In this document: positions 7,926 to 39,986 of the stretch, piece after piece | How positions within the stretch are numbered: the stretch's first letter is position 1 | Layout: the number at the start of each line of letters is the position of its first letter | DNA from: an uncultured candidatus Brocadiaceae bacterium | GTDB taxonomy: Bacteria > Planctomycetota > UBA1135 > UBA2386 | Assembly (NCBI GenBank): GCA_964469555.1 | Contig: CAYYAQ010000003.1 | Location: forward strand, 17,982 to 81,981 | Direction: 5' to 3' | Length of the DNA stretch: 64,000 bases | Notes under the pieces: generated by a model | What the model saw: the letters and a program-made list of their open reading frames with translations, nothing else | Told to the model about the DNA's origin: nothing | Database searches by the model: none | Position numbers and translations under genes: made by a program

Positions 7926-9152
7926 ATGGCTACTACATTCAAGTACGCGGCGAAGGATGCATCGGGTCGGACGGTCACCGGCTCCATGAAGGCCGATTCT
8001 CAGAACGACGTTCTCACCGATCTTCGCCGCCGCCGGTTGACTCCAGTCGACATCGAGGAAACAGGTGGCGGACTGTTCTCCTCTGGAAAGAAGAAGGGCA
8101 GGTCCAAGTCGTCTTCGAGGAAGGGCGAGGTCGAGGTCTTCACGCGTCAGCTTTCGACGATGCTCAGCGCGGGTATCCCGATGCTCGAGGCCCTCGAGAT
8201 CCTGGCCGATCAGGCCGAGAGTCCCGGGTTTACGTATTGCCTTGAGTGCGTGGTCGAGGAGATTCGCGGTGGCGCTGACCTCTCGAAAGCCCTCGGTGGC
8301 CATCCGAGGGTCTTCAGCGACATCTACGTCAGCATGATCCGCGCCGGCGAGGTCTCTGGTCAAATCGATGTCATCCTGACGCGACTCGCCGAGTACCTCG
8401 AGGCGGCTGCTCACCTGCGGTCCGAGATCAAGTCGGCGATGACCTACCCGGTCGTTTCGTTGTTCCTGGTCATCGGTATCGCGAGCTTCCTGATGATCGG
8501 CATCGTGCCGAGTTTCAAGCCCGTGTTCCAGTCGCTCGAAGTCGAGCTTCCCGGCCTGACGTTGTTCACCATGGATATCGCGTTCTTCATGCGCGACAAC
8601 TGGTATCTGATCCTCGGTGGCATCATCGCACTGGTCGTTGTGCTTCGCGCGTATATCAAGACGGAGCATGGAAAGCTCGTCTACGACACGATCACGCTAC
8701 GCATCCCGGTCTTTGGACCGCTGTTCAAGAAGGTAGCCCTCTCACGGTTCGCCCGCACGTTCTCGACGCTCGTGAAGAGCGGTGTGCCGATTCTAGGCGC
8801 GATGGAGATCGTCTCGGAGACCGCGGGCAACAAGGTGATCTCCAGTGTCGTCGACGAAGCGCGTGAGAGCGTCAAGCAGGGCGACACGCTGATGGAGCCG
8901 TTCTCCAAATCGAAGGTCTTCCCGGCGATGGTGACGAAGATGATCGGTATTGGCGAACGGTCCGGTGCCCTCGACCAGCTGCTGGAGAAGATCGCCGAGT
9001 TCTACGACCAGCAAGTTGAGACGGAGGTCAAGGCACTCACGTCCCTGATCGAGCCGATCATGATCGCCGTGATGGGCTTCGTCGTGGGCGGCATCGTCCT
9101 GGCGGTCTTCCTGCCAATCTTCAAGCTGCAGGAGAAGCTATCCGGAGGATAG
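7926..9152 (+). CDS. pilC: Type IV pilus platform protein PilC / GspF family
   Basis: 408 aa with two GspF-type repeats (FTRQLSTMLSAGIPMLEAL... and FARTFSTLVKSGVPILGAM...), interspersed TM segments, and EPIMIAVMGFVVGGIVLAVFLPIF at the C-terminus. Confidence 0.9.
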   Translation: MATTFKYAAKDASGRTVTGSMKADSQNDVLTDLRRRRLTPVDIEETGGGLFSSGKKKGRSKSSSRKGEVEVFTRQLSTMLSAGIPMLEALEILADQAESPGFTYCLECVVEEIRGGADLSKALGGHPRVFSDIYVSMIRAGEVSGQIDVILTRLAEYLEAAAHLRSEIKSAMTYPVVSLFLVIGIASFLMIGIVPSFKPVFQSLEVELPGLTLFTMDIAFFMRDNWYLILGGIIALVVVLRAYIKTEHGKLVYDTITLRIPVFGPLFKKVALSRFARTFSTLVKSGVPILGAMEIVSETAGNKVISSVVDEARESVKQGDTLMEPFSKSKVFPAMVTKMIGIGERSGALDQLLEKIAEFYDQQVETEVKALTSLIEPIMIAVMGFVVGGIVLAVFLPIFKLQEKLSGG

Positions 9153-9255: not shown

Positions 9256-10134
9256 ATGAACGACACTGGCAAACGAATCGGTGGTTACGGAGCGGCCGCG
9301 ATCGTGGTCGCAGGATTGATCTACGTGAGCTTCATCCGCGAGACGGACGCGGATCCCATGACCCTCCTCGGCTCCGCGAACGTCCAGATCAGCCTGGCTG
9401 CCGCGTTCCCGGAATTGGACAGGGAAGGCAAGCCGAACGAGGCGCGGATCAAGATCCTGAGAGATGCGAGTGAGTTCGTCGCGAGGGCGCGCAAGCAGAA
9501 TCCGAACCTGCACGCAGGCATTGAGCTCGAGGCGCACCTGTCGTACATGAACGGCGACTACAAGACGGCCGCTGGCCTGTTCAAGGAGGCGCAGGGGAGC
9601 AAGGAATCCACGCCGGAGAGCAGTGTCATCGACAGGCTCAACGAGGCCGGGATGTGGCGTGCGGCGGAGAAACCGGAGAAGGCGTTGGCGGTCCTGGATC
9701 AGCTCTCGGAGTTCCTGGTGACGCACGCGACGATGTCGCAGAATCAACGGGCGCACTTGTTGGTCGAGCTTGACCGCGCCGACGAAGCGGTGGATATCGC
9801 GACACGTCTCGCCTACTCGTGCACGGATCCCGTCGTCCTGGTAAACGTCGGGTTGCTGCTCGAGTCTCAAAATGAGATGGAGATCGCCGAGGCAGCGTTC
9901 AGTGCCGCTGCGGAGAGGGCGCCGTGGGCGAACTACTACTTGGCGAAGCTCAAGATCTACGAAGAGGAGTTCGATACGGGATTGGATCTATTGAAGCGAG
10001 CGGTTGCTGCCGATGGTCGCCGGATTCGAGCCATGCTCAAGCGTGATTCGACGACCTGGAAGTCCATTGAAGGGGACGCGCGTTTCAAGGATCTATTCAC
10101 CTCTGCGAGTAAACCGGCCAATCCTGGTCGCTGA
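9256..10134 (+). CDS. Membrane-anchored TPR-like protein (pilus accessory role is only positional inference)
   Basis: AAGGAG upstream of ATG 9256. One N-terminal TM (GGYGAAAIVVAGLIYVSF), then helical-repeat sequence with TPR-like pairs (YMNGDYKTAAGLFKEA, AEKPEKALAVLDQL, ANYYLAKLKIYEEEFDTGLDLLKRAV). Lies between pilC and the pilin gene. Confidence 0.5.
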   Translation: MNDTGKRIGGYGAAAIVVAGLIYVSFIRETDADPMTLLGSANVQISLAAAFPELDREGKPNEARIKILRDASEFVARARKQNPNLHAGIELEAHLSYMNGDYKTAAGLFKEAQGSKESTPESSVIDRLNEAGMWRAAEKPEKALAVLDQLSEFLVTHATMSQNQRAHLLVELDRADEAVDIATRLAYSCTDPVVLVNVGLLLESQNEMEIAEAAFSAAAERAPWANYYLAKLKIYEEEFDTGLDLLKRAVAADGRRIRAMLKRDSTTWKSIEGDARFKDLFTSASKPANPGR

Positions 10135-10214: not shown

Positions 10215-10928
10215 ATGAACAATCGGCAAAAGGGCTTCACGCTCATCGAGCTGATGATCGTTGTCGCGATCATCGCTATCATCGCATCCATCGCTATTCC
10301 GAACCTGTTGAGCGCGCGCTTGAACGCCAACGAGTCGGCCGCGATCGCCACGCTGAAGAACATCTCTTCCGCACAGGCCCAGTGCCAGGCTTCCGGCGCT
10401 ATCGATACCAACAACAACGGCGCTGGTGAATACGGCTACTTCGGCGAGCTCGCCGGTGGCGTTGGCGTCCGCGACAGTGCTGGCTCCGCCAGCACCGACC
10501 ACTTGGCTCCCCCGGTCCTCTCCGGTGCGTTCGCGAACGTCGCCACGCAGTCCGGCATCACCGGTGGCGCCGTCACGCGTTCCGGCTACATCTTCCAGGT
10601 TTACCTCCCGGCCAGTGACATGCTCGGACTGAACGAACAGACCACCGGTGGCGTTGGCTCGACCGCTCCGGACGCCGCGCAGGCTGAGGTTCTCTGGTGC
10701 TGCTACGCTTGGCCGAGCTCATTTGGTAACAGCGGCAAGCGCACCTTCTTCATCAACCAGTCCGGTGACGTTCTGAGCACCAAGAACCTCGCGCAGCGCT
10801 ACAACGGCGCCGCGAAGGTTCCCGGTTGCACCGCCGCATTCCTGAAGGGCGCTGGCAACGAGATGGGTTCGACCGTCGCCGCCAACACCTCGGGCAATGA
10901 CGACCAGGTCTGGGTCGTCGTCAACTAA
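10215..10928 (+). CDS. pilA: Type IV (major) pilin-like protein with class III signal peptide
   Basis: AGGAAAA upstream of the ATG. MNNRQKG|FTLIELMIVVAIIAIIASIAIPNLL, i.e. Gly at -1, Phe at +1, Glu at +5 and a hydrophobic alpha1-N helix. 237 aa with four Cys, including a vicinal pair (WCCYAW). Followed by a strong hairpin. Confidence 0.85.
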   Translation: MNNRQKGFTLIELMIVVAIIAIIASIAIPNLLSARLNANESAAIATLKNISSAQAQCQASGAIDTNNNGAGEYGYFGELAGGVGVRDSAGSASTDHLAPPVLSGAFANVATQSGITGGAVTRSGYIFQVYLPASDMLGLNEQTTGGVGSTAPDAAQAEVLWCCYAWPSSFGNSGKRTFFINQSGDVLSTKNLAQRYNGAAKVPGCTAAFLKGAGNEMGSTVAANTSGNDDQVWVVVN

Positions 10929-10988: not shown

Positions 10989-11159
10989 ACCCGTGAAGAG
11001 GGGTTCCGGCCCTCCTTGCCAGTATCCCGGGGCCCCCGCGGTTGACCCGCCCGGTGCGGCCCGAACCCTGGTGGCAAGGCGGTTATCCGGCGCGGTGTGG
11101 GAGGATCGTACAGCCTATTCCTCAACCCTTTTGGTGATCGTGCCGATAGCCCCGATGGC

Positions 11160-12146
11160 ATGAGCATTTCTAATCCAGTCCGCGGGTACGACCTGCCCGG
11201 GTTGATGACGGGGGAGGTACCGGAGAAACGAGACCGGCGTCAGGTCCCGATCACGCGCCGCACCATCAAAAGCCTCAGCCTGGTCATCCCCGCGAAGAAC
11301 GAAGCCGCTGGCCTCCCCGGTCTTCTCGAAGAGTTGAACGGGGTGCTCGCCCAGCGCGAAGGCCTGCGCTACGAGATCCTGCTCATCGACGACGGTTCGA
11401 CGGACGAGACAGCGGAGATCGGTCTGGCTGCCGGAGCTCGGGTGATCACTCATCCCGAATCCCTGGGCAACGGCGCAGCGGTCAAACGCGGGATTCGTGA
11501 GGCGCAAATGGACTGGGTGGTGCTGTTGGATGGCGATGGCCAGCACCCGCCCGACCAGTTGCCCGAGCTGATCCGGCTGGCTGAGAGCCGCTACGACATG
11601 GTCGTGGGGTCGCGTGGCGGCAGCGGCGGCTCCGTGCACCGCAATCTCGCGAACCGCATCTACAACGGTCTCGCGAGCTACGTGACCAATCGACCCATCC
11701 CTGATCTCACGAGCGGGTACCGGTTGATTCGCGCCGACGTGGTCAAGGGATTCTGCTACCTGCTACCCAATACGTTCAGCTATCCGACGACGATCACGCT
11801 CGCCATGATGAGAGCGGGTTACTCCGTAGGTTTCGCTCCCATCGAGGTGCGAGAGCGGCAGGGGAAGAGTCACATCCGCGTCATTCGCGACGGCACTCGC
11901 TTTCTGATCATCATCCTCCGCATCGCGACGTTCTTCGCGCCGCTGCGCGTGTTCATGCCGCTGTCTGCCGTGATGTTCGCGATGGGTTTGATCTGGTACG
12001 CGATCACCTACTTTACCGGTGGCCGGTTCACGAACATGGGCGTTCTGCTGTTCACGCAGGCATCCGTCATCTTCGGACTCGGCCTCGTCTCCGAGCAGGT
12101 CGCAGCGCTCCGCTTCCAACGATCCGACGGAGACTTCCGGTCGTGA
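11160..12146 (+). CDS. GT2 glycosyltransferase, polyprenyl-phosphate sugar synthase type (DPM1/ArnC/GtrB-like)
   Basis: LSLVIPAKNEA...ILLIDDGSTDET...LLDGDGQHPP (GT-A DxD region), plus C-terminal TM helices (FLIIILRIATFFAPL..., VLLFTQASVIFGLGLVSEQ) as in polyprenol-P glycosyltransferases. Start uncertain: ATG 11160 chosen; GTG 11097 and ATG 11205 are possible. Confidence 0.75.
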   Translation: MSISNPVRGYDLPGLMTGEVPEKRDRRQVPITRRTIKSLSLVIPAKNEAAGLPGLLEELNGVLAQREGLRYEILLIDDGSTDETAEIGLAAGARVITHPESLGNGAAVKRGIREAQMDWVVLLDGDGQHPPDQLPELIRLAESRYDMVVGSRGGSGGSVHRNLANRIYNGLASYVTNRPIPDLTSGYRLIRADVVKGFCYLLPNTFSYPTTITLAMMRAGYSVGFAPIEVRERQGKSHIRVIRDGTRFLIIILRIATFFAPLRVFMPLSAVMFAMGLIWYAITYFTGGRFTNMGVLLFTQASVIFGLGLVSEQVAALRFQRSDGDFRS

Positions 12147-13321
12147 GCGAATTGCGGGTCCTCGCTTTCGGGGCCTGGGATACCGGCGCCGGCTACCCGC
12201 GCGCCGACGCCCTGCTTCTCGGTCTGCGAAGCAGCGGCTGCCTCGTGGACGAGTGTCGGTTCGAGTTGCCGTTCGCTGGAACAGAGAAGCGTCGTCTGTT
12301 GACTTCGCCCTGGTTGTGGCCCGGCTACTGGTGGTCGCTCCGGAAGGCGAAGCAGCAGGCGATCCGGGCCCTCACCGCGGCCGTCGAAGCACATCGTCCC
12401 GACGTGGTCCTCGTGCCGTATCCCGGGCATCTCGTCGTCCGATGGGTGCGCGAGGCGTTTGGGGGACCGATCGTGTTGGATCTCTTCCTGTCCGCGTACG
12501 ACACGGTGGTCATCGATCGTCAGATGTGCAAGCCGGGATCTCCGCTGGCCCGGTTCATGCGGCGCACGGACCAGCGTGCGTGCGAGGCTGCCGACTGCGT
12601 GCTCGTCGACACTCCCGCAAACGCCGTCTTCACCTCGGAACTGGTCGGGCTGCCGCCTGAGCGATTCGTCGCTATCCCCGTGTCGGATCCGATGGAGGCG
12701 GGGGAAGGGCTTCCGTATCGTCCCCCCGAAGTCGACGGGACGATCGAGCTCTTGTTCTTCGGCACCGGTGTGCCGTTGCACGGACTCAGCCACCTCCTCG
12801 ACGCCGTCGAACAGTGTGATCGGGTCCACCTCACGCTCATCTGCGGCGCGGCTGCTGACCGCGTGCGGGCGCAAGCGATACCTTCGAGTCGAGTGCGCGT
12901 CGTCGGCGAGTTCGTGGATCCTGAGGTCTTGCGGGATTACCTCGCCCGGTCGCACCTGGTCGCGGGTGTCTTCGGAACCTCGCAAAAGGCAGACCGCGTG
13001 ATCCCGTTCAAGGTCATGCAAGCACTTTCGGTGGGTCGACCGGTCATCACCGCGCGAACGCGCGCCACGAGCTCCGTGCTTCGTGAAGGCATCGACGCCG
13101 TGCTCGTCCCGCCCGGAAATGCGACCGCCTTGGCGGCGGTCCTTTCGAGTCTGGCCGAACAACCCGAGCGATTGGTGGAGCTGGCCGCGGGGGCGCGCAC
13201 CGTCTACGAGCGCCGGTTCTCGCTCGACGTCACCGGCGGGGCTCTGCGCGGTGCATGCCGCGCGTGCGTCGATCGTTCCTCCTCCCGCGCGGAGACCGTG
13301 GAACTCGTGGAGATGACGTGA
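12143..13321 (+). CDS. GT-B fold glycosyltransferase (GT4-like)
   Basis: GTG start overlaps the upstream stop (GTGA). The C-terminal half resembles the GT4 nucleotide-sugar-binding domain (GVFGTSQKADRVIPFKVMQALSVGRPVITARTRATSSVLREGIDAVLVPPGN). The usual EX7E Glu is Gln here. Confidence 0.65.
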   Translation: MSELRVLAFGAWDTGAGYPRADALLLGLRSSGCLVDECRFELPFAGTEKRRLLTSPWLWPGYWWSLRKAKQQAIRALTAAVEAHRPDVVLVPYPGHLVVRWVREAFGGPIVLDLFLSAYDTVVIDRQMCKPGSPLARFMRRTDQRACEAADCVLVDTPANAVFTSELVGLPPERFVAIPVSDPMEAGEGLPYRPPEVDGTIELLFFGTGVPLHGLSHLLDAVEQCDRVHLTLICGAAADRVRAQAIPSSRVRVVGEFVDPEVLRDYLARSHLVAGVFGTSQKADRVIPFKVMQALSVGRPVITARTRATSSVLREGIDAVLVPPGNATALAAVLSSLAEQPERLVELAAGARTVYERRFSLDVTGGALRGACRACVDRSSSRAETVELVEMT

Positions 13322-15153
13322 GCGACGATCGGAAGCGCGATCACCGCGGGATGTGGGTCATCGCCGTGGCCACTTTGCTCGCGTACTTCCTCTGCCTCGG
13401 CGGAGACTTCGTCTACGACGACGTGCACTCGGTTCGTGACAACAAGGCCGTGAGCTCTCTCGCGAACGTGCCTGGTTTCTTCGTGGACGTGTCCACCTTC
13501 AGCTCCGTCGACTGCCGGCTGTACCGGCCCGTGCTCTTGACGAGCTTCGCCATCGATGGGTTCATCGGCGACATGCGTCCATGGGCGTTCAAGCTCTCGA
13601 ATCTGCTACTGCATCTCGTGGCCGCGTTCCTCTTGTTCGGGATTGCCCGCCGGGTCGGCGCGCGTCGCAACGGCGCGGTGCTCGCGGCGTGTCTCTTCGG
13701 CGCGCACCCGATGGTGTCCGAGGCGGTGAACACGATCTCCGGTCGCAGCAACTTGATGATGGTCGTCGCGCTGCTCGGTGCGGTGCGTTGTCATCTCTCC
13801 GCGATGGAAGGACGGCGATACGCCGTCCTCGGCACGACGCTTCTCGGCCTCGTCGCGATGGGCTGCAAGGAGCCGGGGATGATCCTGCCAGTCTTGCTCG
13901 TCATTCTGGAGGCACTCCGCGTCTCCGATGGTCCGCGGGACTACCGCGCCGCCGCGTTGCGGGTCTTGCCGACCGTGGTGGTGGTCGTCCTCTATCTATG
14001 TGTTCGCTCACACTTCCTCGGCGTGGCGTCGCTCGGGGTCGGGGCGTGGGCAGGCACGGACGTCAGTAGTGGGCACGGGCGGGGACTCGCGACCCAACTC
14101 GCGACGATGGCCGTCTTGTTGCCACAGTCGTTGCTCAAAGTCGTCGCCCCGCACGGCATGACGATGGATCCAGTCATCGCCTTCACGAACGAATGGAGCT
14201 CGCCGGTGGTCCTCGGCGGCGTGTTGTTCCTCGCGGTGCTCACGGCGGCGGGGCTCTGGGCGCCGCGCCGACGTCCCGGGGTCTTTCTCGGCACCTGCCT
14301 CGCATGGGGCACGGCGGCGCCCTGGGTCCTGAAGCCACTGAACCTGCCCTTCCTGGAGCACCGTTTCTACGGAACCCTCGCTGGCCTGGCGTTGGTCGCG
14401 GCCGTGGCCTTGCGGGGCGCAGAGTCTCATCTCGCGCGGATGTCGTGGCGCGGCGCGTTCGCGATCCCCGTGCTGCTGTTCGTGATCATCTCGGGAGCGC
14501 GATCGCTGGAGTTCACGAGCGAAGAGAAGCTCTGGACCCTGGAGCTGTCCCGCAATCCGGACTCACGGGTCGCGATGGCGGGCATCGCGGTGGTTCGCAT
14601 GCAGCAGCATCGCTACGCCGAGGCGCGGCCCTATCTCGAGCAACTCGTGCAGGCCTACCCTCTGCGCCGCGACGCGAGGATGAATCTCGTGGAGGTCATG
14701 TTGCACACCGGCGATCCGGAGGCATCGGTCCCGCACACGCAGTTTCTCATCGAGACGTGGGAGCGAAATGCGTTCTACTGGTTGCTGCGGAGCCGCGTCC
14801 TGGCCGCGGTCGGCGTCTTGCGTCACGAGGATTCGTACTTCGACGCCGCGGTCGACGCCGCCCTGCACTGTCTGAAGATCAAGGAGCCGAAGGGTCTCGT
14901 GTATCGGACGGCTGCGAGCGCGCGTCGGTTGCAAGGCGATCTCGATGCGGCGATCGCCCTGCTGGACAGGAGTGTCGACCGCGGGCTCCATCACTCCTCG
15001 GTGTTGCTTGACCGAAGCGCGCTGTTGATCCGTCGCGGGAGGATCCGGGAGGCTCGGGCCGATCTCCACCGCGCGCGTGGCAACGAACCGTTCAATCCGC
15101 GGGTACTCCGCGCGTTGGAGGAACTCGACGGACGCGGTGCGACGCCGCGTTAG
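13318..15153 (+). CDS. Polytopic GT-C-type glycosyltransferase fused to C-terminal TPR repeats (TMTC/PMT_2-like)
   Basis: GTG 13318 overlaps the upstream stop (GTGA); ATG 13351 is the alternative. About 10 TM segments. First-loop motif GGDFVYDDVHSVRDN (DD at 13417-13422), as I recall for TMTC/PMT-type GT-C enzymes. The C-terminal ~190 aa are TPR-like. Confidence 0.6.
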   Translation: MSDDRKRDHRGMWVIAVATLLAYFLCLGGDFVYDDVHSVRDNKAVSSLANVPGFFVDVSTFSSVDCRLYRPVLLTSFAIDGFIGDMRPWAFKLSNLLLHLVAAFLLFGIARRVGARRNGAVLAACLFGAHPMVSEAVNTISGRSNLMMVVALLGAVRCHLSAMEGRRYAVLGTTLLGLVAMGCKEPGMILPVLLVILEALRVSDGPRDYRAAALRVLPTVVVVVLYLCVRSHFLGVASLGVGAWAGTDVSSGHGRGLATQLATMAVLLPQSLLKVVAPHGMTMDPVIAFTNEWSSPVVLGGVLFLAVLTAAGLWAPRRRPGVFLGTCLAWGTAAPWVLKPLNLPFLEHRFYGTLAGLALVAAVALRGAESHLARMSWRGAFAIPVLLFVIISGARSLEFTSEEKLWTLELSRNPDSRVAMAGIAVVRMQQHRYAEARPYLEQLVQAYPLRRDARMNLVEVMLHTGDPEASVPHTQFLIETWERNAFYWLLRSRVLAAVGVLRHEDSYFDAAVDAALHCLKIKEPKGLVYRTAASARRLQGDLDAAIALLDRSVDRGLHHSSVLLDRSALLIRRGRIREARADLHRARGNEPFNPRVLRALEELDGRGATPR

Positions 15154-15923
15154 GTGAATAGTCGGCGTCCGTTCTCCATCGTCAACGCGGCGGCGTCGTC
15201 GAACGCGATCCCGCGAACCTCGGCCAACGCGGCCAATGTGTGTACCAGGAACGCGGGCTCGTTCGATTCGCTCCGCCGCGGTTGAGGGGTGAGGAACGGC
15301 GCGTCGGTCTCCACGAGGATCCGATCCTCCGATGCGAACGCGGCGGCAGCCCTCAGATCCGTGGCCTTGGGATACGTCAGCGGGCCGGCGAACGACAAGT
15401 AGTAGCCGAGGTCGAGGGCTCTCCTCGCTTCGGCGACGCCGCCTGAGAAACAGTGGATCACGCCGCGGACTCCATCGTGCCCGGCGAGCACCGAGTAGGT
15501 GTCGTCGTGGGCGTCGCGCGAGTGGATGATCACGGGCTTGTCGCGATCCTTCGCGAGTTGAAGGTGCGCCTCGAGTGATCGTCGCTGCTCCTCGGGGGTC
15601 GTCCGGTCCCAGTAGTAGTCGAGACCAGTCTCGCCGATGGCGGTGCAATCGTCCTCCGAGCAGATCGCGGTGAGCGCAGCGAACTCCTCGTCGAACCGGT
15701 AGGCGCTGTTGGGGTGGAGGCCTGCGGAATAGAGCACCGAACACGCTGAGGAGGCGGACAGGCCGCGGCTGAATCCCTGGGCGTTCCGACTCGATGCCAG
15801 GTCGATACCGACAGTCAGCATCGTGGTGATGCCATCCGCGGCGGCGCGGGTCACCGCGGCAGTCGGGTCGTCGACCTCGCCGTCGGTGCGCAGACCCAGG
15901 TGACAGTGGGTGTCGAAGATCAC
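15150..15923 (-). CDS. tatD: TatD-family metal-dependent hydrolase/DNase
   Basis: MIFDTHCHL start, GLHPN, IGETGLDYYW, VIIHSRDA, GVIHCFSG, ETDAPFL: the standard TatD motif series. The 3' end overlaps the convergent gene by 4 nt. Confidence 0.85.
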   Translation of the reverse strand: MIFDTHCHLGLRTDGEVDDPTAAVTRAAADGITTMLTVGIDLASSRNAQGFSRGLSASSACSVLYSAGLHPNSAYRFDEEFAALTAICSEDDCTAIGETGLDYYWDRTTPEEQRRSLEAHLQLAKDRDKPVIIHSRDAHDDTYSVLAGHDGVRGVIHCFSGGVAEARRALDLGYYLSFAGPLTYPKATDLRAAAAFASEDRILVETDAPFLTPQPRRSESNEPAFLVHTLAALAEVRGIAFDDAAALTMENGRRLFT

Positions 15924-15944: not shown

Positions 15945-16994
15945 CTACTTATCGGCGAAGTCGAACTGCTTCTTGTAGTCGTTGAGCTTCGCTCGGATCC
16001 CCGCGTCGACTTCCTTCATGTCGACCTCCTTCAGGAACGGCACGGCATCCTGACCGAGGGCTTCGACGACGGCTACCATGCACTTGCGACGGAAGAGGGG
16101 ATTGGGCACCTGGCCTGGAACGGGCGCTTGCTGCCAGAACAGCTCCTTGATGCGGTTGGCGGACATGACGGACTTCATCCTGCCCAGCGCTTCAACGCAC
16201 CGTTGCACCGTGATCGTCTCGTAGTACTCGGTTCTTGTCAGCATCCGCAGGAGGGTCCTCTCCACCTCGGGATGACCCGTCGCCACGTAGTCGTCGATGT
16301 AGTTGAACAGTTGCTTGGGGTGTAGCCCCGGAGTCTGGCTTCCGGCACGCTGACTCGGGTTGGTGTGTTTTTCGGCGAGCAGCTCGTGCAGGATCTCGCC
16401 GGCGATCTTCTTGTCGGCCAGCAGCAACTCGCTCGCGGCGAAGCGGCGCAGTCGAAGACTGACCGCGAACTCCTTGCCACGCAGCACGCGGGCGAGGAGG
16501 TCCTTGCCCTTTGGAGGATCGGCGGACAGCGCGGCGATGAGGAGCCACTTGCGCAACTCGTCGTTGGTCGTCGCGTCCCCTCCGACACTCTGCTCGGCGA
16601 GGAACGCGCTCTCGATCTGCGCGGAGGCGTCCGGGAGGAAGGACATGGTCTCGACGATGTCCTTCATGCGTTCGTCGACGAAGAACCGATCGTCCGAACC
16701 CGGCTTGCTCTTTTCCAACCACGGGGCCCAGTACTGCAGGTGCTCGAGCAAGAGCAGGAAGCCGGCGCCTTCGTACTTGGCCGTCGCGAAGTAACCCCAC
16801 TCCCTCACGGAGTGTTGCAGGGCTCGCAATCGACCGTCGAGTTCATCGCGGGTCGCGTGGGCGTCGTGGACGAGGTACCCGGTGCCCGCGAGGTTCGCGA
16901 TCAGGAGGGCCACCAGCAGGCCGGGGACCAGTCGCGCGGGATTGGGAGCGTTGGAAGTCGGGTTGGTTGTCATCTCGGCGCCTTTTATGCCCAT
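15945..16994 (-). CDS. Hypothetical signal-anchored helical-repeat (HEAT-like) protein
   Basis: N-terminal hydrophobic anchor LVPGLLVALLIANLAGTGYLV, then alpha-helical repeat-like sequence. No motif I can name. Start could be ATG 16973 (MTTNPTS). Coding call rests on length, GC3 pattern and the absence of a better frame. Confidence 0.5.
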   Translation of the reverse strand: MGIKGAEMTTNPTSNAPNPARLVPGLLVALLIANLAGTGYLVHDAHATRDELDGRLRALQHSVREWGYFATAKYEGAGFLLLLEHLQYWAPWLEKSKPGSDDRFFVDERMKDIVETMSFLPDASAQIESAFLAEQSVGGDATTNDELRKWLLIAALSADPPKGKDLLARVLRGKEFAVSLRLRRFAASELLLADKKIAGEILHELLAEKHTNPSQRAGSQTPGLHPKQLFNYIDDYVATGHPEVERTLLRMLTRTEYYETITVQRCVEALGRMKSVMSANRIKELFWQQAPVPGQVPNPLFRRKCMVAVVEALGQDAVPFLKEVDMKEVDAGIRAKLNDYKKQFDFADK

Positions 16995-17255
16995 CGCGGG
17001 GCGCCGTCACAACCGTTCGATTGTGAACGGCTCCCGGCGTGGGATTCCGCACACTCCGGAGCGCCTCGGAGAGCGTGTTCTTGGGGATGCCCTACCGGCC
17101 CATAACATCGTGCGGTAAAGGCTTTTGCGAATTGCGCTGGGGCGGATATGCCACGATTTCTGCGGTGGCGATCTCCCCGTCGCACGGCATGGAACTTGAC
17201 CCTCCTGGCAGGTGCCCTGGCTCGACCCGAAATGGGGGCTCTAAAGCCCCTGTGT

Positions 17256-17370: not shown

Positions 17371-20300
17371 ATGCTGATTCGCCCGCTCACCATTCTCCTC
17401 GCCCTGAGCCTAACTCTCTTCTTCCCAGCGTGTTCTAGTAGTGGAACAAAGCCGGGGGAGACCGGGGTTTGTGGTTCGCAGCCCGGCAAGAACCTGTTTT
17501 GCCTGACGTCCTGCAACCTGGGTTGCTCCCTGGCCGGGTGCAACATCAACAAGATCAGTCAGAACGAACCGATCGAGTTGATCTTCAACCAGGACGTCGA
17601 CAAGTTCAGCGTGCCGCCGTACTCGACGAGCATCCTGCTGCGCACCGCGACGGGTGAAGAGCCCGTGGGCGATTGGCTCGTCAACGGGAACCGCGTGACC
17701 TTCTCTCCCGGCGTGTTGATCTCCGGCGCGAAGACGTTCTTCGGCTTCCGTCCGAACGAGACCTACCACCTCTACATGCCCGCGAGTATCGACCAGCCCG
17801 ACGTGATCCAGTCGATGGGTGGCGATCGACTCTCGACGCCGATCACGTGCACGCTCAACATCGGCAAGATCAAGGACCTCAACCAGGCGCGGCCAGCGGC
17901 GGAACTCATCGTCCCTCTGAAGCTCGCGAAGGGAGTGGACCTCGACACGGTGATCAAGATCGAGTTCAACGAAATCATCGATCCGGCGATCTTCGTGGGG
18001 ATCACGCCCGAGACGAGCCCTATCCGCTACGTCGTGAAGGCTGCCACTCTCGACGCCGAGAAGAATGTCATCTGTCGATCGTCGTCCGAAGCCATTCTGC
18101 TTCCCGGTGAACCGCGCATGACGATCGATCCGGTCCGCAGGATCAGCACCGTGACCTTCAAGCCGAAGGAGAACTTGCCCGGCAAGAAGTGCGTCGAAAT
18201 CCTGGTGACTTCCCAGGTCAAGGACCTCGCGGGAGTCCTCGCCCTCCCACACCTGATGTTCTTCACGACGAGGGACGTGGGCGTCCAGTCGTTCAATAAC
18301 ACGGAGGACTTCACCAGCAGCAAGTTCCTCGACAAGGAGCTTTCCGCCGGGACGTGGGGCAACGGCAAGCTCACGTTCAGCCCGATCGGGGGCTCAGGCA
18401 AGCACGGTGTGTTCGACCCGGCGCTCGGCAAGGACATCAGCGATCCGAAGATCAAGGTCGCGGTCTACGAGTGGGACCTGGACAAGCCTGGTGGCATCAA
18501 GATCCCGAAGATCTATACGACCACGGGCAAGGACGAGTTCGTCACCGACGGACGGTTCGAGTTCTCCAAGATGGAGATCCCCGACGGCGTCGAAGTCCAC
18601 TTCATCGGCTCCCAACCCGCCCGCATCTGGGTGCGGGGCGCGGTTCGCATCGGCGGGCTGCTCGCCTCGAATGGCGAGTCCTTGCCGACAATCGGTCGCC
18701 CGGGATCCGTACTCAGGTTGAAAGCGAAGTCAGCGCTGACCGGTGAGAAGGGTGGTCGCGCTGGCGCGATGGGCGGTTCCGGCGGTGACGGAGGCGACAT
18801 GGGCGGTATGGCCGTCATCACGGCAGGCAACTTCGGCATCGGCACTGAGTACGAAATCGACGCCGTCGGAACCACGGACTTCACGAAGATCGGTGCGGCG
18901 AGCAACACCCTTGGCCTCGTCTTCAAGGCGACCGGTCGCGGCGTGGGGTCGGGCCGGGCGCGTTCCGGTCCGATTGTGCAGGCCGACGGATTCGTCACCG
19001 GATCCCATTACCGGATCCTGACCTTGGGAACGACCGACTTCAGGTTGATCGGTGCTGCGAACAACACGCTCGGCGAGGAGTTCACGGCGACAGGCCGCGG
19101 CGCTGGAACTGGCACCGCACGCCACCTGGACTTCGACGGCAAGCCGGGTCAGGACGTTAACTTCTACAACGAATCCTCGACCGTGCGCCACTTCTACGAT
19201 GGCCAGTACAAGGGCTCGGGCGGGCGCGCCTCGCCGATGTGGCCGCCGTTGGGCTTCAACAACGCGATCAGCTACTCGTACTACTCCGTCATCGCGCAGC
19301 ACGCCAACCGGGGCGGGAGCGGTGGTGGCTTCACGTCGGCTGGCGGCGACGGATACACCCGCTGGATTGGCGCAAACTCTGTGAACGCCAAGTATCTCGC
19401 TCCCGGGAAGACTCCCGGCGGCAAGGGCGCCGCGTTCGCCTCGACGTTCCCCAACTACACGAACGGCTACACGCATCAGGACCACTTCGTGGCCGGTGGC
19501 GCCGGTGGCGGTGGTGGTGGGTCGTCGGCCGGCGGCGCGATCTTGAGCATTGTCGTCGACCGGTGGAAAGCCGGGCGCGCCGGCGGTGGCGGTGGTGGAG
19601 CCATGGCTCTGCGTATCGGCGGCGAGCTTGTGCTGCTGGCCTCTGGTCGACTTCAGGCCCTCGGCGGCGACGGAGCCTTCGACAACAGCAACTTCGCCAT
19701 CCGCGGTCTGATGACCCCGGGCGGCGGTGGCTCCGGTGGAGCATTGTTCCTGCAGGTCAATCAGGCCACCCGCAACGTGGGCTCGATCAGCGTCAAGGGC
19801 GGTATAGGCGGGAGGACCTTCGGCGGCCCTGGCGATCAGGTCTACGCCGGCATGGAGGCCTACGGTGGCGATGGCTCGAATGGCTTGCTCCACTTCGAGA
19901 CGACGCAGAGTCCCAATAGCTATTCGGTGGGCATCACGGTGCCGGCCAAGCCTCCGGTTTCCCTGCTCGATCCGGACGACAAGGACCTTGTGGTCACGAT
20001 TCGCTCCCTCTGGTACGCCGCGAGTCTGCTGTTCCCGCCGGAATTCAAGCGCTACACGATCGAGGCGATCGTCGACAACCAGCGTCGGGTCTACTCCGAC
20101 GACAAGGAGGTCGGCAACCCGGCTGCCCCGCAGTACGACAAGGACTACGCGGGCCTGGCCAACAACGGCTCCCCGATCGTATTCGCTGTCCAGGGCGCGA
20201 AACTCGAACTCGACCCCGCGGGCCAGCTGGCTCCGAAGGCGAACACCGCCATCAAGCCGTTCCGCAAGTACGTCGGGGACCACTCGACGACCGAACCGAC

Positions 20301-20406
20301 CCTCTTCGACGATGGTGCCACCGGCTACCGATTCGAACTCACTCTCGACCGCAGCCTCGGCAAGACGGTCGAGGTCAAGAAGGTCGTTGTCTACTGGGAT
20401 CTGTAG
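17371..20406 (+). CDS. Large glycine-rich lipoprotein, paralog A (putative surface protein, family unknown)
   Basis: 1011 aa. Signal plus lipobox LFFPAC. Cys motif FCLTSCNLGCSLAGC (17500-17541). Two regions with bacterial Ig-like (SbsA/Big_5-type) sequence pattern. Poly-Gly runs alternating with short hydrophobic strands (GGAGGGGGGSSAGGAILSIVV, GRAGGGGGGAMALRIGG, TPGGGGSGGALFLQV). Conserved C-terminal patch shared with paralog B. Confidence 0.8.
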   Translation: MLIRPLTILLALSLTLFFPACSSSGTKPGETGVCGSQPGKNLFCLTSCNLGCSLAGCNINKISQNEPIELIFNQDVDKFSVPPYSTSILLRTATGEEPVGDWLVNGNRVTFSPGVLISGAKTFFGFRPNETYHLYMPASIDQPDVIQSMGGDRLSTPITCTLNIGKIKDLNQARPAAELIVPLKLAKGVDLDTVIKIEFNEIIDPAIFVGITPETSPIRYVVKAATLDAEKNVICRSSSEAILLPGEPRMTIDPVRRISTVTFKPKENLPGKKCVEILVTSQVKDLAGVLALPHLMFFTTRDVGVQSFNNTEDFTSSKFLDKELSAGTWGNGKLTFSPIGGSGKHGVFDPALGKDISDPKIKVAVYEWDLDKPGGIKIPKIYTTTGKDEFVTDGRFEFSKMEIPDGVEVHFIGSQPARIWVRGAVRIGGLLASNGESLPTIGRPGSVLRLKAKSALTGEKGGRAGAMGGSGGDGGDMGGMAVITAGNFGIGTEYEIDAVGTTDFTKIGAASNTLGLVFKATGRGVGSGRARSGPIVQADGFVTGSHYRILTLGTTDFRLIGAANNTLGEEFTATGRGAGTGTARHLDFDGKPGQDVNFYNESSTVRHFYDGQYKGSGGRASPMWPPLGFNNAISYSYYSVIAQHANRGGSGGGFTSAGGDGYTRWIGANSVNAKYLAPGKTPGGKGAAFASTFPNYTNGYTHQDHFVAGGAGGGGGGSSAGGAILSIVVDRWKAGRAGGGGGGAMALRIGGELVLLASGRLQALGGDGAFDNSNFAIRGLMTPGGGGSGGALFLQVNQATRNVGSISVKGGIGGRTFGGPGDQVYAGMEAYGGDGSNGLLHFETTQSPNSYSVGITVPAKPPVSLLDPDDKDLVVTIRSLWYAASLLFPPEFKRYTIEAIVDNQRRVYSDDKEVGNPAAPQYDKDYAGLANNGSPIVFAVQGAKLELDPAGQLAPKANTAIKPFRKYVGDHSTTEPTLFDDGATGYRFELTLDRSLGKTVEVKKVVVYWDL
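18841..19122 (+). repeat. Intragenic tandem duplication (two 41-aa units, 53-aa period) inside paralog A
   Basis: GTEYEIDAVGTTDFTKIGAASNTLGLVFKATGRGVGSGRAR (18841-18963) versus GSHYRILTLGTTDFRLIGAANNTLGEEFTATGRGAGTGTAR (19000-19122): 26/41 identical by hand alignment. I found no counterpart in paralog B. Confidence 0.8.
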
Positions 20407-20465
20407 CCGTCGCCTCTGAACGAACCCGTATTACATACACCCCCCCCAAACCTAGTCTGACTCTC

Positions 20466-23150
20466 ATGCATCCTAGATCTATTATCAGCGCGTTGGCCTT
20501 GACCGCCCTCGCACTCGTCGGTTTTGGCTGTAGCGGCGGCGGCAGCGCGTCCGGTTTGAGCATCAAGGGGGCGTGCATGGACGGTGTGTTCTGCCTCACG
20601 AGTTGCAGCCTGGGTTGTACGAATCAAGGCTGTTCGGTGACGGACATCGCGCCCAACCAGCCGATTCGTCTCACGTTCAGTCAGCACGTCGACCTGACGA
20701 CCGTGGACTTCTCGACGATCTCCATCAAGACCGCGAGTGGCCGCACCCCAGAGGGCCGGTTCGTCGTCACGGGCAACATCGTCGAGTTCAAACCGGAGAT
20801 CAAGATCACCGGTGGCAAGACCGCTTTCGGTTTCATCGCCAACGAGACGTACCTGCTCAACCTCCCGGATGCGGGGGAGAGCGGCCAGGTGTTGAAGTCC
20901 ATCTCCGGCAATGCGTTGTCCACGCCGCTGGTGTGCAGTCTTCGCGTGTCGCAGAAGGTCGTCGACATCGACGGCGCCCCGCCGAAGGGTCGGTTGATCA
21001 CCCCGGTAGACGGCGCGACCAATGTTCCGAAGGACACCGTCATCGTTATCGAGTTCAGCGAGATCATCGACATCGCCCCGTTCCAGGGCGCGACGACTCA
21101 GACGAGCCCGGTGCAGTACCTGATTCGCAAGACGAAGCAGAAGCCAGGTGGTGCTCCGAACGAGCGTGTGTGTGACCAGAACTCCAACCGTCAGACGTTG
21201 GAAGGCCTGCCGCAGGCGGAGAACGATCCGATTCGAGGGGTCACGACCGTGACCCTGCGACCGACGGTTCCGTTGCCCAGCCAGATTTGCATCGAGGTCG
21301 TTGTGACAAGTCAGGTTCGCGACCTCTCGGGCAAGCCCGCCATCGAGAACAGCGAGAGCTTCACCACGCAGATCCTGGTCGCCGGCGAAGGCGAGATTCG
21401 CGAGCGGTTCAACACGGATGGACAGCTCGACAAGACGACTTCGAGTGGTCGCTGGAGTGGCGGCAAGGCCCTTCCGCCGCAGATCGGTGGCACGGGCGTC
21501 CTCGGCGAGTTCAACATCAGCGCGGGCAAAGCCGATCCCGCCAACCCGAACCGCTACGTGTGGAACACCGACTCGCAGAAGATCCCGGGCGCGTTCACGC
21601 CGACTGGCAAGGACATCATCGTCACTGGCGGAATCTTCGAATTCACCCGATTCGTTCTCGGCGCGGACCTCACCATGGTGTTCGAAGGCTCGAACCCCGT
21701 GCAGATCCGCGTACGCGGCGAGGCCATCATCGAGGGTCGTATCCACGCGAACGCTCCGGTGGCGCTGTACTTCGCCGCTGCTCCGACTCCCGGGACGCCC
21801 GTTGAGTTCGGGCAGAATGGCACCCTCGGCAACTGTGGTGGTGCCAAGGGTGGTCAGGGCGGCGACTCGTGCCAGAACAAGGGCACCGGTCCCAAGTTCG
21901 CCGGTCGCGCGGGCGAGGTCGTGAGGCTTCCGAGCGGCAATGCCTACAAGGTCGAATCCGCTACTACCGGCGGCAAGGGCGGTCCGTTCTTCCCCGCGAC
22001 GGGCGTGAACACCGACTACTGCGCGTTGACCGGCGTGTTCTGCGGCGTGGTCGGTACGGGTGGTGGTGGCGGGGGCTTCTCCCTGGTTGGGAAGAAGGGT
22101 TTCGTCACGCAGGATCCGTGCAACCTGGCCAGAAACCGGGGCGTCTCGGGCAACACCGGCGGCGGCACGTTTGACATCGGCTCCCTGAACCGTACGAACA
22201 AGACCGACCCGAACGGTTCGGTCAACTTCTACGGCGTCGGCGGATCGGGCGGCGGCGGTGGTGGTTCCCACCCGTTGCTCTCGCGCGGTTTCCCGTTCGA
22301 CAAGTGGCTTCCCGGGAGTGCGGGAGCTGGCGGTGGTGGCATCGTCATCATCCGCGTCGGCGGAGACCTGACCATGAACGGCCAGGCCACGATCCAGGTG
22401 AAGGGTGGCCGCGGCTACACCATCGACGCCGTGAGGCGCTTCCCCGAACCGAACGACAACCTCTTCAACGTTCCGACGCCTGGTGGCGGCGGTTCCGGTG
22501 GGGCCATCCTCTGCCAGGTGTTTGGCGCGACGAAAATGGCGGGCCTCCTCGACTGTTCCGGTGGCGACGGCGGCATCCTCGACAACTCCCCGACGAACCA
22601 GTTCGGTCTCCGGGCCAAGGCTCGCGGTGGTGATGGTGGAGCCGGTTACTACCGTCTCGAGACACCGAATGGTCCGACCGTCATCGACATCGGCTCTGGC
22701 ATCCCGGCCGCGAAGGCGGGGAACGGCGGAATCTTGACCGACTTCGAGTCCAAGGGCGTTTCCCAGTCGCTCTTCTACGCGACCAAGTTGACGTTCCCAC
22801 CGACCTTCCTGCGCTACACCCTGGAAGTCGAGATCAATGGCATCCGCAAGGTCTACTCGGACGACACCGAAGTCGGCAACCCGGCTGCCAAGCAGTACGA
22901 CAAGGACTACGCGGGCGTTGCAGGCCCGAACGAGCCGGTTTATCTCCAGCTGCAGGGTGCCAAGGTCAGTACGGTGACCGGCAAGCCTGACCTCGTCACG
23001 CTTGGCCCATGGCGCGATTACGTAAATAGGAAGGGCAATCAGGGTCTCAACGACGACGAGGCTACCGGATGCCGTTTCCGTCTGACGTTCGACTCGACCG
23101 GCACGACCTCGCTCGTGGTGAAGCGCGTCTCGGTGTTCTTCATCGAGTAG
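20466..23150 (+). CDS. Large glycine-rich lipoprotein, paralog B
   Basis: 894 aa, 59 nt downstream of paralog A. Lipobox LVGFGC. Same Cys spacing FCLTSCSLGCTNQGC (20592-20633). Collinear similarity to A along the N-terminal Ig-like parts, the FEF...VRG segment, poly-Gly strands (TPGGGGSGGAILCQV) and the C-terminal VYSDDTEVGNPAAKQYDKDYAG. Confidence 0.8.
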   Translation: MHPRSIISALALTALALVGFGCSGGGSASGLSIKGACMDGVFCLTSCSLGCTNQGCSVTDIAPNQPIRLTFSQHVDLTTVDFSTISIKTASGRTPEGRFVVTGNIVEFKPEIKITGGKTAFGFIANETYLLNLPDAGESGQVLKSISGNALSTPLVCSLRVSQKVVDIDGAPPKGRLITPVDGATNVPKDTVIVIEFSEIIDIAPFQGATTQTSPVQYLIRKTKQKPGGAPNERVCDQNSNRQTLEGLPQAENDPIRGVTTVTLRPTVPLPSQICIEVVVTSQVRDLSGKPAIENSESFTTQILVAGEGEIRERFNTDGQLDKTTSSGRWSGGKALPPQIGGTGVLGEFNISAGKADPANPNRYVWNTDSQKIPGAFTPTGKDIIVTGGIFEFTRFVLGADLTMVFEGSNPVQIRVRGEAIIEGRIHANAPVALYFAAAPTPGTPVEFGQNGTLGNCGGAKGGQGGDSCQNKGTGPKFAGRAGEVVRLPSGNAYKVESATTGGKGGPFFPATGVNTDYCALTGVFCGVVGTGGGGGGFSLVGKKGFVTQDPCNLARNRGVSGNTGGGTFDIGSLNRTNKTDPNGSVNFYGVGGSGGGGGGSHPLLSRGFPFDKWLPGSAGAGGGGIVIIRVGGDLTMNGQATIQVKGGRGYTIDAVRRFPEPNDNLFNVPTPGGGGSGGAILCQVFGATKMAGLLDCSGGDGGILDNSPTNQFGLRAKARGGDGGAGYYRLETPNGPTVIDIGSGIPAAKAGNGGILTDFESKGVSQSLFYATKLTFPPTFLRYTLEVEINGIRKVYSDDTEVGNPAAKQYDKDYAGVAGPNEPVYLQLQGAKVSTVTGKPDLVTLGPWRDYVNRKGNQGLNDDEATGCRFRLTFDSTGTTSLVVKRVSVFFIE

Positions 23151-23245
23151 TAGAAGCAGCCGAATCGGCGGAACTCGAGAGGCCGGACATCCGATCGCGG
23201 GTGCTCGGCCTCGTGCTTTGTGGCCCGGGCCGGTTCAATGTCACG

Positions 23246-24421
23246 ATGGACCAAGAGCGGGTTCAGAGATTTCGTGCCCGGTTCCTCTGGGTGGAACCAG
23301 CGCGTTGTTACGCACCCGGCGAGCTTCGCGTGTTGGGTGGACGCGTTGTGGGGGCAGGTCCAGCGCGCGGTGGGCGAATTCCCGCGCGGGCCATCCTCCC
23401 GGGCCTGGTCGATGCGCACGTGCACCTGCAGATCTCACCACTCGCGCGGGCGAGGCGGCAGTTTCTTCCGTGGGTTCAAGACGTGATGCGAATTCGTTCT
23501 GAGAGCGCCGTCGCGGATCATGCAAGGCTCGCCGTCGCCGCGATCCGTTCGCTGCTTGCCGACGGGGTCACGGCGGTTGGCGAAGTCGATTCGACCGGTC
23601 TCTCCCCACAGGTGCTGCGCGAGTTCCCGGTGGGTGGTGTGTGCTACCAGGAACTCACTGGGTTCCACCTCGGCGGAGCCGCGTCATCGGATCTCGTGAG
23701 ACGCAGAGAAACGCCGGGCTCGCGACACTGCCGGTCCGGTCTCTCGCCGCACGCGCCGTACTCCGTCTCCCGAGCCCTCTTTCGCGCGGCGCGTGCGCGT
23801 CGCGTCCCCCTCGCAGTGCACGTTGCGGAGACGCTCGAAGAGGTCCAGTTCCTCCGGCGTGGAAGCGGTCCGTTTCGCGAACTCCTCGAGAGTTTGGGTC
23901 GGCTCCCCGATGGCTATCGACCGCCCGGCATCGGTCCGGTCGCGCTGCTGGACCGTTTCGGACTCTTGTCGGAGAGTACCGCGTTGATCCACTGCCAGCA
24001 CATGACTCGCGAGGAGGCCAGCCTGGTAAACCGGCGGCGGGCACCCGTCGTCGTGTGTCCAGGTACCATCGACTACTTTCGACGGACCCCACCGCCGGTT
24101 CCCGCGTGGCTGAAGGCGGGGATCCGGGTTGGGCTGGGCACCGACTCCCTCGCGAGCAATACGCGCATGTCCCTCAGGCACGAGTTGACGCTGGCGCGTC
24201 GGATGTGGCCCTCGCTGTCCCCCGAGACATTGTTGTCGATGGCTACGGTTCACGGTGGCGCCGCGCTCCGATCACGAGGGCTGGGCACGCTGCGGCGAGG
24301 TGCGCCGGCGAGCTTCGTCACGCTACCGTTCGATCGAGATGTCCAGACATGTATCGAGGCGTTCACGACGGGCGAACTGGCACCGGACGGAGTCTTCTTG
24401 CGCGGAACCAGGATCCCGTAG
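23246..24421 (+). CDS. Amidohydrolase-superfamily enzyme (ATZ/TRZ chlorohydrolase / nucleoside-deaminase-like)
   Basis: Start moved to ATG 23246; the ORF-track start at 23069 overlaps the upstream gene. PGLVDAHVHLQ (HxH metal motif), HAPYS, AVHVAE, IHC, GLGTDS: the pattern of MTA/SAH- or aminofutalosine-deaminase-type amidohydrolases. Substrate not assignable. Confidence 0.7.
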   Translation: MDQERVQRFRARFLWVEPARCYAPGELRVLGGRVVGAGPARGGRIPARAILPGLVDAHVHLQISPLARARRQFLPWVQDVMRIRSESAVADHARLAVAAIRSLLADGVTAVGEVDSTGLSPQVLREFPVGGVCYQELTGFHLGGAASSDLVRRRETPGSRHCRSGLSPHAPYSVSRALFRAARARRVPLAVHVAETLEEVQFLRRGSGPFRELLESLGRLPDGYRPPGIGPVALLDRFGLLSESTALIHCQHMTREEASLVNRRRAPVVVCPGTIDYFRRTPPPVPAWLKAGIRVGLGTDSLASNTRMSLRHELTLARRMWPSLSPETLLSMATVHGGAALRSRGLGTLRRGAPASFVTLPFDRDVQTCIEAFTTGELAPDGVFLRGTRIP

Positions 24422-39983: not shown

Positions 39984-39986
39984 CGA

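Follow-up and report, generated by a model that had tools for sequence, protein, structure and literature searches.

A paralogous pair of putative lipoproteins with an uncharacterised glycine-rich module as a candidate envelope scaffold in an uncultured Planctomycetota bacterium

Two large, glycine-rich exported proteins, hereafter A and B, were found to be encoded in tandem in a 64,000-nucleotide stretch of DNA from an uncultured candidatus Brocadiaceae bacterium of the Planctomycetota (assembly GCA_964469555.1, contig CAYYAQ010000003.1, positions 17,982 to 81,981 of the forward strand; this whole stretch is referred to as the window). We tentatively favor, as an explanation a little short of even probability, that A and B are an anciently duplicated, exported and lipid-anchored pair that acts jointly as a binding or structural scaffold of the envelope or cell surface and is not part of a type IV pilus. 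The pair comprises the following features, where alignment A1 contains 19 rows and Ig stands for immunoglobulin.

17371..20406, + strand: gene A, position-1 paralog, 1011 residues (open reading frame; orthologous clade of position-1 genes)
17371..17433, + strand: signal peptide of A with lipobox-like FFPAC, Cys21 (hydrophobic N-terminus; alignment to ortholog lipoboxes)
17500..17541, + strand: Cys motif of A, CLTSCNLGCSLAGC (regular-expression scan; four Cys invariant in alignment A1)
About 17542-17868, + strand: first Ig-like domain of A (placed by homology to B)
17887..18270, + strand: second Ig-like domain of A, Pfam Big_5, residues 173-300 (PF13205, E 1.9e-9; alignment with B)
18283..20403, + strand: C-terminal glycine-rich module of A, residues 305-1011 (aligned with the B module and 55 relatives)
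18802..19170, + strand: insert in a loop of the Gly-rich core of A, two ~55-residue GTTDFT repeats, residues 478-600 (gap in 17 of 19 rows of A1)
20466..23150, + strand: gene B, position-2 paralog, 894 residues (open reading frame; orthologous clade of position-2 genes)
20466..20531, + strand: signal peptide of B with lipobox LVGFGC, Cys22 (PROSITE PS51257 match)
20592..20633, + strand: Cys motif of B, CLTSCSLGCTNQGC (C43, C47, C51 and C56 invariant in A1)
20634..21368, + strand: tandem Ig-like (Big_5) domains of B, about residues 57-165 and 171-301 (Pfam E 1.7e-14, two stretches; AlphaFold2; Foldseek)
21378..21752, + strand: B module part 1, beta domain, module residues 1-125 (AlphaFold2 strands, pLDDT 88-98; conservation)
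21753..22667, + strand: B module part 2, glycine-rich core, module residues 126-430 (AlphaFold2, pLDDT mostly 84-98)
22668..23147, + strand: B module part 3, C-terminal beta-sandwich, module residues 431-590 (AlphaFold2 strands)

The open reading frames, strand, lengths and 59-nucleotide same-strand gap given by a first-pass annotation of this region were all exact; its term "giant" was overstated, as proteins of 0.9-1.0 thousand residues are better called large. A protein identical to A is present in NCBI (P0001). BLASTP alignments of A with B covered an N-terminal stretch of 414 residues at 40% identity (E 9e-81) and a C-terminal stretch of 269 residues at 38% (E 3e-36). Eleven independent loci with the Big_5 form of the proteins were compared (the window, L001, L003, L004, L005, L006, L010, L011, L015, L016, and L017). 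Both paralogs were found in all eleven with their order kept, and were directly adjacent in ten; in L010 (4503-11995), which carries a divergent pair (~25% identity), an amidohydrolase gene sits between them. A third Big_5-type paralog was located in L016 (2921-5647), upstream of the gene for a HEAT-like protein described below. In a neighbor-joining tree over seven genomes, position-1 and position-2 genes formed two separate clades, with the divergent L010 pair outside both. The genomes are distant from one another: in the first three relatives compared, identity to the window proteins was 43-48% for TatD, 45-61% for the DHH protein, and 75% for PilB. Because the two gene positions form separate orthologous clades, the duplication is ancient with both copies retained, which argues for a non-redundant and probably joint function. 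A and B are probably co-transcribed. A metagenome protein of 1743 residues (P0026) was considered as a Rosetta-stone fusion of A and B and rejected: its second half retains a signal peptide and lipobox of its own, so that a read-through or an error in assembly is the most likely explanation.

Both proteins start with a signal peptide ending at a candidate lipid-anchoring Cys. The PS51257 pattern places [LIVMFWSTAG]2-[LIVMFYSTAGCQ]-[AGS]-C at the end of a signal peptide, no later than about residue 35; 13 of the 19 aligned family members fit it at the signal-peptide Cys. Of the lipoboxes earlier read in both proteins, that of B fits this pattern, whereas that of A fails at position -2, which is Pro, although Cys21 of A aligns with the canonical L-[AST]-[GAS]-C-S-G-G sites of its orthologs. 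On this basis, A and B are probably lipid-anchored via the lipobox Cys. The common Cys spacing that had been noticed behind the lipobox, C-x3-C-x3-C-x4-C, has its first Cys at residue 44 of A and residue 43 of B and was present in all 19 aligned members (x5 in one); in a six-frame translation of the whole 64 kb it was unique to A and B.

The two N-terminal Ig-like (Big_5) segments predicted at the outset were recovered in both proteins, by PF13205 (38.6 bits in A and 54.8 in B, above the gathering score of 23.6; in B over residues 171-301, in two stretches) and, for the model of B, by Foldseek matches to tandem Ig domains. The full-length AlphaFold2 model of B, built from 19 sequences, had a predicted local distance difference test score (pLDDT) of 81.8. 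In this model, the signal peptide and linker (residues 1-36) are disordered. Two Ig-like sandwiches follow at about 41-165 and 171-301, with pLDDT values of ~85-93, and the Cys motif packs against the first of them; beyond lies a large C-terminal region. Against the PDB, the full model matched tandem Ig-like domains only, with LdtMt2 domains A/B as the best match (E 4e-8), and the C-terminal module was therefore modeled alone.

Modeled in this way from 57 diverse sequences, B residues 305-894 were predicted to form one rigid unit (pLDDT 94.5; predicted template modeling score 0.92). Part 1 of the module holds the conserved DGxFxF...VRG...I.G block. The core contains at least eight near-invariant Gly motifs separated by variable segments of low conservation, where indels concentrate and reach 77 residues. 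Gly accounts for 26% of the core in B and 22-29% across the family, and 25 of the 33 invariant columns of the 590-residue module are Gly, mostly inside the core. The first two thirds of the core are mostly without DSSP secondary structure despite high pLDDT, with long stretches above 90; one ten-residue block of the core falls to 69. In the C-terminal third, a unit of three strands recurs, each time after a Gly run. The sequence blocks singled out at first pass (RFEFS..VRG, Gly runs followed by hydrophobic strands, and a C-terminal tail) turned out to be conserved across the whole family, and the accompanying idea of a solenoid fits the model, in which strand triplets follow invariant Gly runs within one rigid body. 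Conserved polar residues of the module, in its own numbering, are E9, S22, H188 and Y190 of a GHAY motif, R326, Q380, R426, E428, D495, Q526, and R566.

The module could not be placed in a named family, in agreement with the first-pass annotation. For A and B, Pfam gave nothing beyond Big_5 at E<=1, NCBIfam no meaningful match, and PHROGs no significant match (one, E 0.19); no match to the module was obtained in PDB sequence searches with a single sequence and two profiles, and no full-length match of either protein to an autotransporter, RTX, RHS, or PKD class was found (Pfam E<=1). Other sequence-search matches of A and B were GGSGGG-linker noise and were discarded. In Foldseek, the module model had no match in the PDB at E<=1e-3; the best matches were jelly-roll lectin, ephrin ligand-binding domain, and carbohydrate-binding module (CBM) chains of ~150 residues (E 0.03-0.5, not significant), which presumably belong to the C-terminal sandwich, query coordinates being absent from the Foldseek output. 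The only significant fold-library matches came from BFVD and were giant-virus and phage proteins, Gly-rich and either "collagen-like" or uncharacterised (E 1.7e-10 to 3e-4). These alignments spanned 350-680 columns with template modeling (TM) scores of 0.14-0.34 and root-mean-square deviations of 8-24 Å; as the TM-scores are low, they reflect local Gly-repeat similarity and not the same fold.

The insert of A comprises 123 residues between Gly motifs, and its two repeats are identical at 23 of 49 positions, with the core Y.I...GTTDFT.IGA..N..G..F.ATG.G.GTG.A. This lineage-specific insert is limited to A and a 76%-identical ortholog (P0002). Homologs of the insert were small unannotated proteins of other phyla, and it also matched two phage proteins, recorded as a "virion structural protein" of cyanophage S-TIM54 and a "phage stabilization protein" of Caudoviricetes. 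Two Kelch proteins (P0024 and P0025), first taken as matching the insert, actually match the module. In P0014, an insert of ~70 residues (...TSNTLTDTTKTWITAPQEWANQRVRIVSGPGTGQERLV...; A1 columns ~760-835) lies in another loop of the Gly-rich core, so several core loops accept extra domains.

A word-index search returned only ~25 relatives. In an exhaustive profile search, the family comprised 2354 cluster representatives at E<=1e-3, of which 1063 reached E<=1e-10 and 422 reached E<=1e-30. The module (profile positions ~303-874) recurred at the C-terminus of proteins with other N-termini, as follows.

Kelch propeller N-terminus: P0024, P0087, P0093, P0125
FG-GAP propeller N-terminus: P0137, P0150
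LamG N-terminus: P0208
Short N-terminal region of ~150 residues: P0094, P0173

In P0116, the order is reversed, with the module first and Kelch after it. Relatives other than the Big_5 form have ordinary cleavable signal peptides and not lipoboxes; nearly all of these end in A-Q (e.g., LHAQS, PALPAQG, and SLNAQT, as read in P0024, P0087, P0093, P0137, P0208, P0094, and others), an unusually uniform cleavage context. From its association with varied N-termini and ordinary cleavable signal peptides, the module was concluded to be an exported unit. All sources that name the organism gave Planctomycetota/Planctomycetes or an unclassified "bacterium", and as far as these sources go the family is restricted to Planctomycetota. 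Its members are named "hypothetical", "Ig-like domain-containing", or "LamG domain-containing" proteins. No module relative was found among IMG/VR contigs. A scan of GTDB genomes, which ran on low-complexity Gly patterns and is no measure of taxonomic breadth, gave at least six loci. The module is an undescribed and uncharacterised family for which no solved analog was found.

Several known systems resemble A and B in part. The likeness to SbsA-type Big_5 proteins consists of the two N-terminal Ig-like domains; these cover ~250 of 900-1000 residues, whereas the 590-residue module lies outside any described Big_5-containing family. LdtMt2, a lipid-anchored periplasmic L,D-transpeptidase with two Ig-like domains followed by YkuD, has the same layout of N-terminal anchor, tandem Ig stalk, and C-terminal functional domain, but the likeness is confined to the Ig stalk (TM-score 0.1-0.25), and A and B have no YkuD domain. 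Chlamydial Pmps, autotransporter passengers, and RTX beta-rolls share GGA[ILV]-like repeats followed by a hydrophobic strand and a solenoid-like prediction, and Pmps are likewise exported proteins of a bacterium of the Planctomycetes-Verrucomicrobia-Chlamydiae group. In contrast to Pmps and autotransporters, A and B have an N-terminal lipobox as probable anchor and a predicted soluble C-terminal beta-sandwich of ~160 residues instead of a barrel. Neither protein matched Chlam_PMP (PF02415), autotransporter families, or HemolysinCabind (PF00353) at Pfam E<=1, nor were RHS/YD repeats or PKD domains found at that threshold. The Gly motifs of the module are not RTX nonapeptide (GGxGxDxUx) arrays. 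Foldseek gave no structural match between the module and solved right-handed parallel beta-helix enzymes or tailspikes (PDB, E<=1e-3).

The closest analogy for the module is the polyglycine II sandwich. Domains of this class consist of left-handed polyglycine II helices packed in a lattice, with Gly making up more than half of their residues. The Gly-rich loops of gp38 from phage S16 project from a small beta-helix, and its receptor is bound by variable loops (PMC6851490); a polyglycine II sandwich has also been proposed for PE_PGRS domains (PMC7830552). The module resembles gp38 and PE_PGRS in its invariant Gly motifs, including GGGGGG, that alternate with variable, indel-tolerant segments, and it shows the gp38/sfAFP-type pattern of conserved Gly motifs with hypervariable segments between them. 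It differs from gp38 in Gly content, which is >50% over 73 residues there and 26% over 305 residues in the module core. No polyglycine II protein appeared in sequence or profile searches of the module or among the 50 PDB Foldseek matches listed, and membership in this class is not established.

The divergent intergenic regions upstream of A had 39% column identity overall, with two elements in common.

17186..17198, + strand: GGCATGGAACTTG, candidate sigma-54-type -24/-12 promoter for A-B, 173 nucleotides before the ATG of A
17015..17028, unstranded: palindrome GTTCGATTGTGAAC (family consensus GTTCG-N4-CGAAC), candidate regulator-binding site at a conserved position

Among the orthologous loci with this region, both elements stay in place within otherwise unconserved sequence. 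The first, GGYATG-N4-TTG, matched once in the 64-kb window (0.34 expected by chance). In L001, L003, L004, L005, L011, L015, L016, and L017, it likewise precedes paralog 1 on the + strand. L006 has a one-mismatch variant at the same position and an exact copy in a coding region, regarded as chance; the only other exact match was at the Kelch locus L012. The GG, the spacing, and the TTG are hence conserved in nine independent loci, with the variant in a tenth; the -12 C is not conserved. The consensus of sigma-54 -24/-12 promoters is TGGCACG-N4-TTGC, and the fixed GG...TTG with a variable middle fits their spacing, making the element a candidate promoter. Its GGAAC core was also considered as a site for an extracytoplasmic-function sigma factor, a reading that was rejected, as GGAAC varies in L001, L011, and L015 and GG...TTG is fixed. 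No gene for RpoN or an enhancer-binding protein was seen in the 64-kb window, and simple sigma-70 and terminator scans gave chance-level results. The palindrome lies 118-247 nucleotides upstream of the promoter-like motif in ten loci; its pattern is common by chance (11 window sites at <=1 mismatch). It could be a site for an enhancer-binding protein or an element of the HEAT-like gene, the start codon of which is 21 nucleotides away. Neither element occurs at the pilin gene.

Upstream of the pair, the window contains the following genes, where GT stands for glycosyltransferase and TPR for tetratricopeptide repeat.

5099-6199, + strand: PilT
6196-7905, + strand: PilB
7926-9152, + strand: PilC
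9256-10134, + strand: TPR-like transmembrane protein
10215-10928, + strand: pilin with prepilin N-methylation motif and DUF2950-like region
11097-12146, + strand: GT2
12143-13321, + strand: GT4
13255-15153, + strand: protein with multiple transmembrane segments and TPRs
15150-15923, - strand: TatD
15945-16994, - strand: HEAT-like transmembrane protein, 349 residues, divergent from the pair

The HEAT-like protein has a single N-terminal hydrophobic segment (predicted transmembrane residues 20-38) and HEAT-like helices; it had no Pfam match in the window and faint HEAT_2 matches in orthologs. In 10 of 11 loci, its gene lay divergently upstream of the pair, which makes its product a probable partner of A and B; beside the Kelch-type and short-type paralogs it was absent. 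This gene and the conserved promoter motif are the firmest partners of the pair. Downstream of the pair are genes for an aminofutalosine-deaminase-like amidohydrolase, an NrnA-like DHH protein, and a phosphoesterase. The longest open reading frame of the amidohydrolase (23069-24421) would overlap B by 82 nucleotides; gene calls of its homologs place the start at 23246 (391 residues), leaving a 95-nucleotide gap and no overlap. The DHH and phosphoesterase genes, unrelated housekeeping genes, were downstream in all 11 loci.

The distance to A is 6.4 kb from the end of the pilin gene and 2.2 kb from that of the TPR gene, with two opposite-strand genes in between. L003 has two tandem pilin copies. 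A pilin or PilC gene was found within 10 kb upstream in 9 of 11 loci, being absent in L005 and L016, and in L017 unrelated genes intervene between pilin and pair; the GT2-GT4-TPR trio was present in 6 of 11 loci. The Kelch-type (L012) and short-type (L013) module proteins occur in unrelated contexts. As the pil and GT linkage is weaker than the housekeeping linkage, it looks like inherited synteny and not a specific association, and the single surface system with the pilus and a GT-C/TPR glycosylation module that had been proposed is not established. The best NCBIfam matches of GT2 were polyprenyl-phosphate sugar synthases (such as AglJ and ArnC), all below cut-off, and the TPR protein has at least seven hydrophobic segments, an FVYDDVHS loop, and C-terminal TPRs. 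With these features, it is plausible that the GT2, GT4, and TPR genes directly after pilin form a periplasmic glycosylation module. The label GT-C, given to the TPR protein at first pass, found no support in Pfam or the PDB; one weak BLASTP similarity to a PMT_2 protein was obtained (E 0.007). In L016 (17745-19484) and L017 (16595-18385), a gene of PMT_2, a GT-C family, follows a Na/sulfate symporter gene, and no counterpart was seen in the window.

For the window as a whole, the GC content is uniform (60-66%), and tRNA and Rfam scans of the 64 kb (gathering threshold) were empty. Four further large open reading frames of 422-1060 residues had no Pfam match at E<=1e-5 (37740-40922, -; 46946-48943, -; 48940-50208, -; and 55547-57478, +), and tblastn detected no relation between them and A or B.

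A joint action of A and B is proposed since both paralogs are kept side by side and core-syntenic, together with the HEAT-like protein and the promoter motif. In the explanation that we favor, the pair would be under sigma-54 control, and A and B would act together, probably as a heteromer. The four-Cys motif would probably form a disulfide knot, and the two Ig-like domains would serve as a stalk that spaces the remainder from the membrane, as in LdtMt2. The module would be the functional head, in which invariant Gly motifs build a rigid, solenoid-like scaffold and the variable, insertion-tolerant segments between the motifs, with the terminal beta-sandwich, present a ligand-facing surface. 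The ligand would be polymeric, either a glycan or a protein. Several points weigh against this explanation: the lipobox of A is non-canonical, the -12 element of the promoter-like motif is without the canonical C, the conserved polar residues of the module could equally mark a catalytic site, and the core geometry may be either a beta-solenoid or a polyglycine II lattice.

The third of these points bears on the possibility, which we consider unlikely, that the module is a glycan- or polymer-active catalytic domain of beta-helix type with a C-terminal carbohydrate-binding-like sandwich, Big_5, Kelch, FG-GAP, and LamG being accessory binding modules as in many carbohydrate-active enzymes and tailspikes. 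A constant module of ~590 residues combined with interchangeable accessory domains would suit an enzyme, as would about a dozen invariant or near-invariant polar residues including the GHAY motif, the weak jelly-roll lectin/CBM-like Foldseek matches attributed to the C-terminal domain, and a layout of lipid anchor, two Ig domains, and C-terminal domain that is that of the enzyme LdtMt2. However, the Foldseek search found no beta-helix enzyme in the PDB at E<=1e-3, no similarity to any catalytic family was seen in Pfam, NCBIfam, or PDB-profile searches, and most invariant positions are Gly, fitting a structural scaffold. It is also improbable that A and B are redundant or independent paralogs, neighbors by history without a heteromer or joint function. 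In favor of this reading, A and B carry separate signal peptides and lipoboxes, the copies in L010 have an amidohydrolase gene between them, L016 has a third copy, and the sole "fusion", P0026, looks like a read-through artefact. Against it, redundant gene copies are usually lost over such time spans, and both copies persist here in the same order at 11 of 11 loci, as two orthologous clades despite 35-40% identity.

Quite unlikely, in our view, is that A and B are components or substrates of one apparatus with the type IV pilus and the GT2/GT4/TPR genes, for example as pilus-associated adhesins or as lipoproteins whose Ig domains are glycosylated in the periplasm. The linkage to pilin or PilC (9 of 11 loci) and to the trio (6 of 11) has persisted though TatD is only 42-53% identical between genomes, and both the sub-threshold GT2 matches to polyprenyl-phosphate sugar synthases and the TPR protein, with its hydrophobic segments, FVYDDVHS loop, and PMT_2 similarity in a single comparison, would suit such an apparatus. 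Against it, the opposite-strand TatD and HEAT-like genes separate the two clusters, the trio is missing from five loci and pil genes are missing upstream in L005 and L016, unrelated genes intervene in L017, and the downstream housekeeping linkage is more constant (11 of 11). Moreover, the conserved promoter-like motif lies upstream of A and not at the pilin gene, no linkage to pil genes is seen for the Kelch-type and short-type module proteins, and neither a prepilin N-methylation motif nor a pilus-family match was found in A or B (Pfam, NCBIfam).

A more far-reaching proposal, to which we assign a low probability, is that the core is a fold of its own, a large cellular scaffold and hybrid of polyglycine II and beta-solenoid in which a lattice of at least eight invariant polyglycine motifs displays variable loops. 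The lipoprotein pair would carry it as a heteromer under sigma-54 control and would belong to the core envelope components of an uncultured Planctomycetota clade; in combination with Kelch, FG-GAP, and LamG domains, the same scaffold would serve more generally for recognition in exported proteins. To our knowledge, polyglycine II display of this kind has so far been described in a small domain of a phage adhesin and in an antifreeze protein. Should the module have a lattice of this type, a rare architecture seen in a phage adhesin would be present in a large family of cellular proteins as well; if the module were an ordinary beta-helix adhesin or enzyme, the gain would be annotation and no new principle. 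With 2354 cluster representatives, the module is a well-populated domain without a family model, and its definition would provide an annotation for hundreds of exported proteins now called "hypothetical" in a phylum with poorly understood envelope biology. For this biology, the Big_5 pair, with its conserved partner gene and conserved promoter motif, offers a concrete experimental handle.

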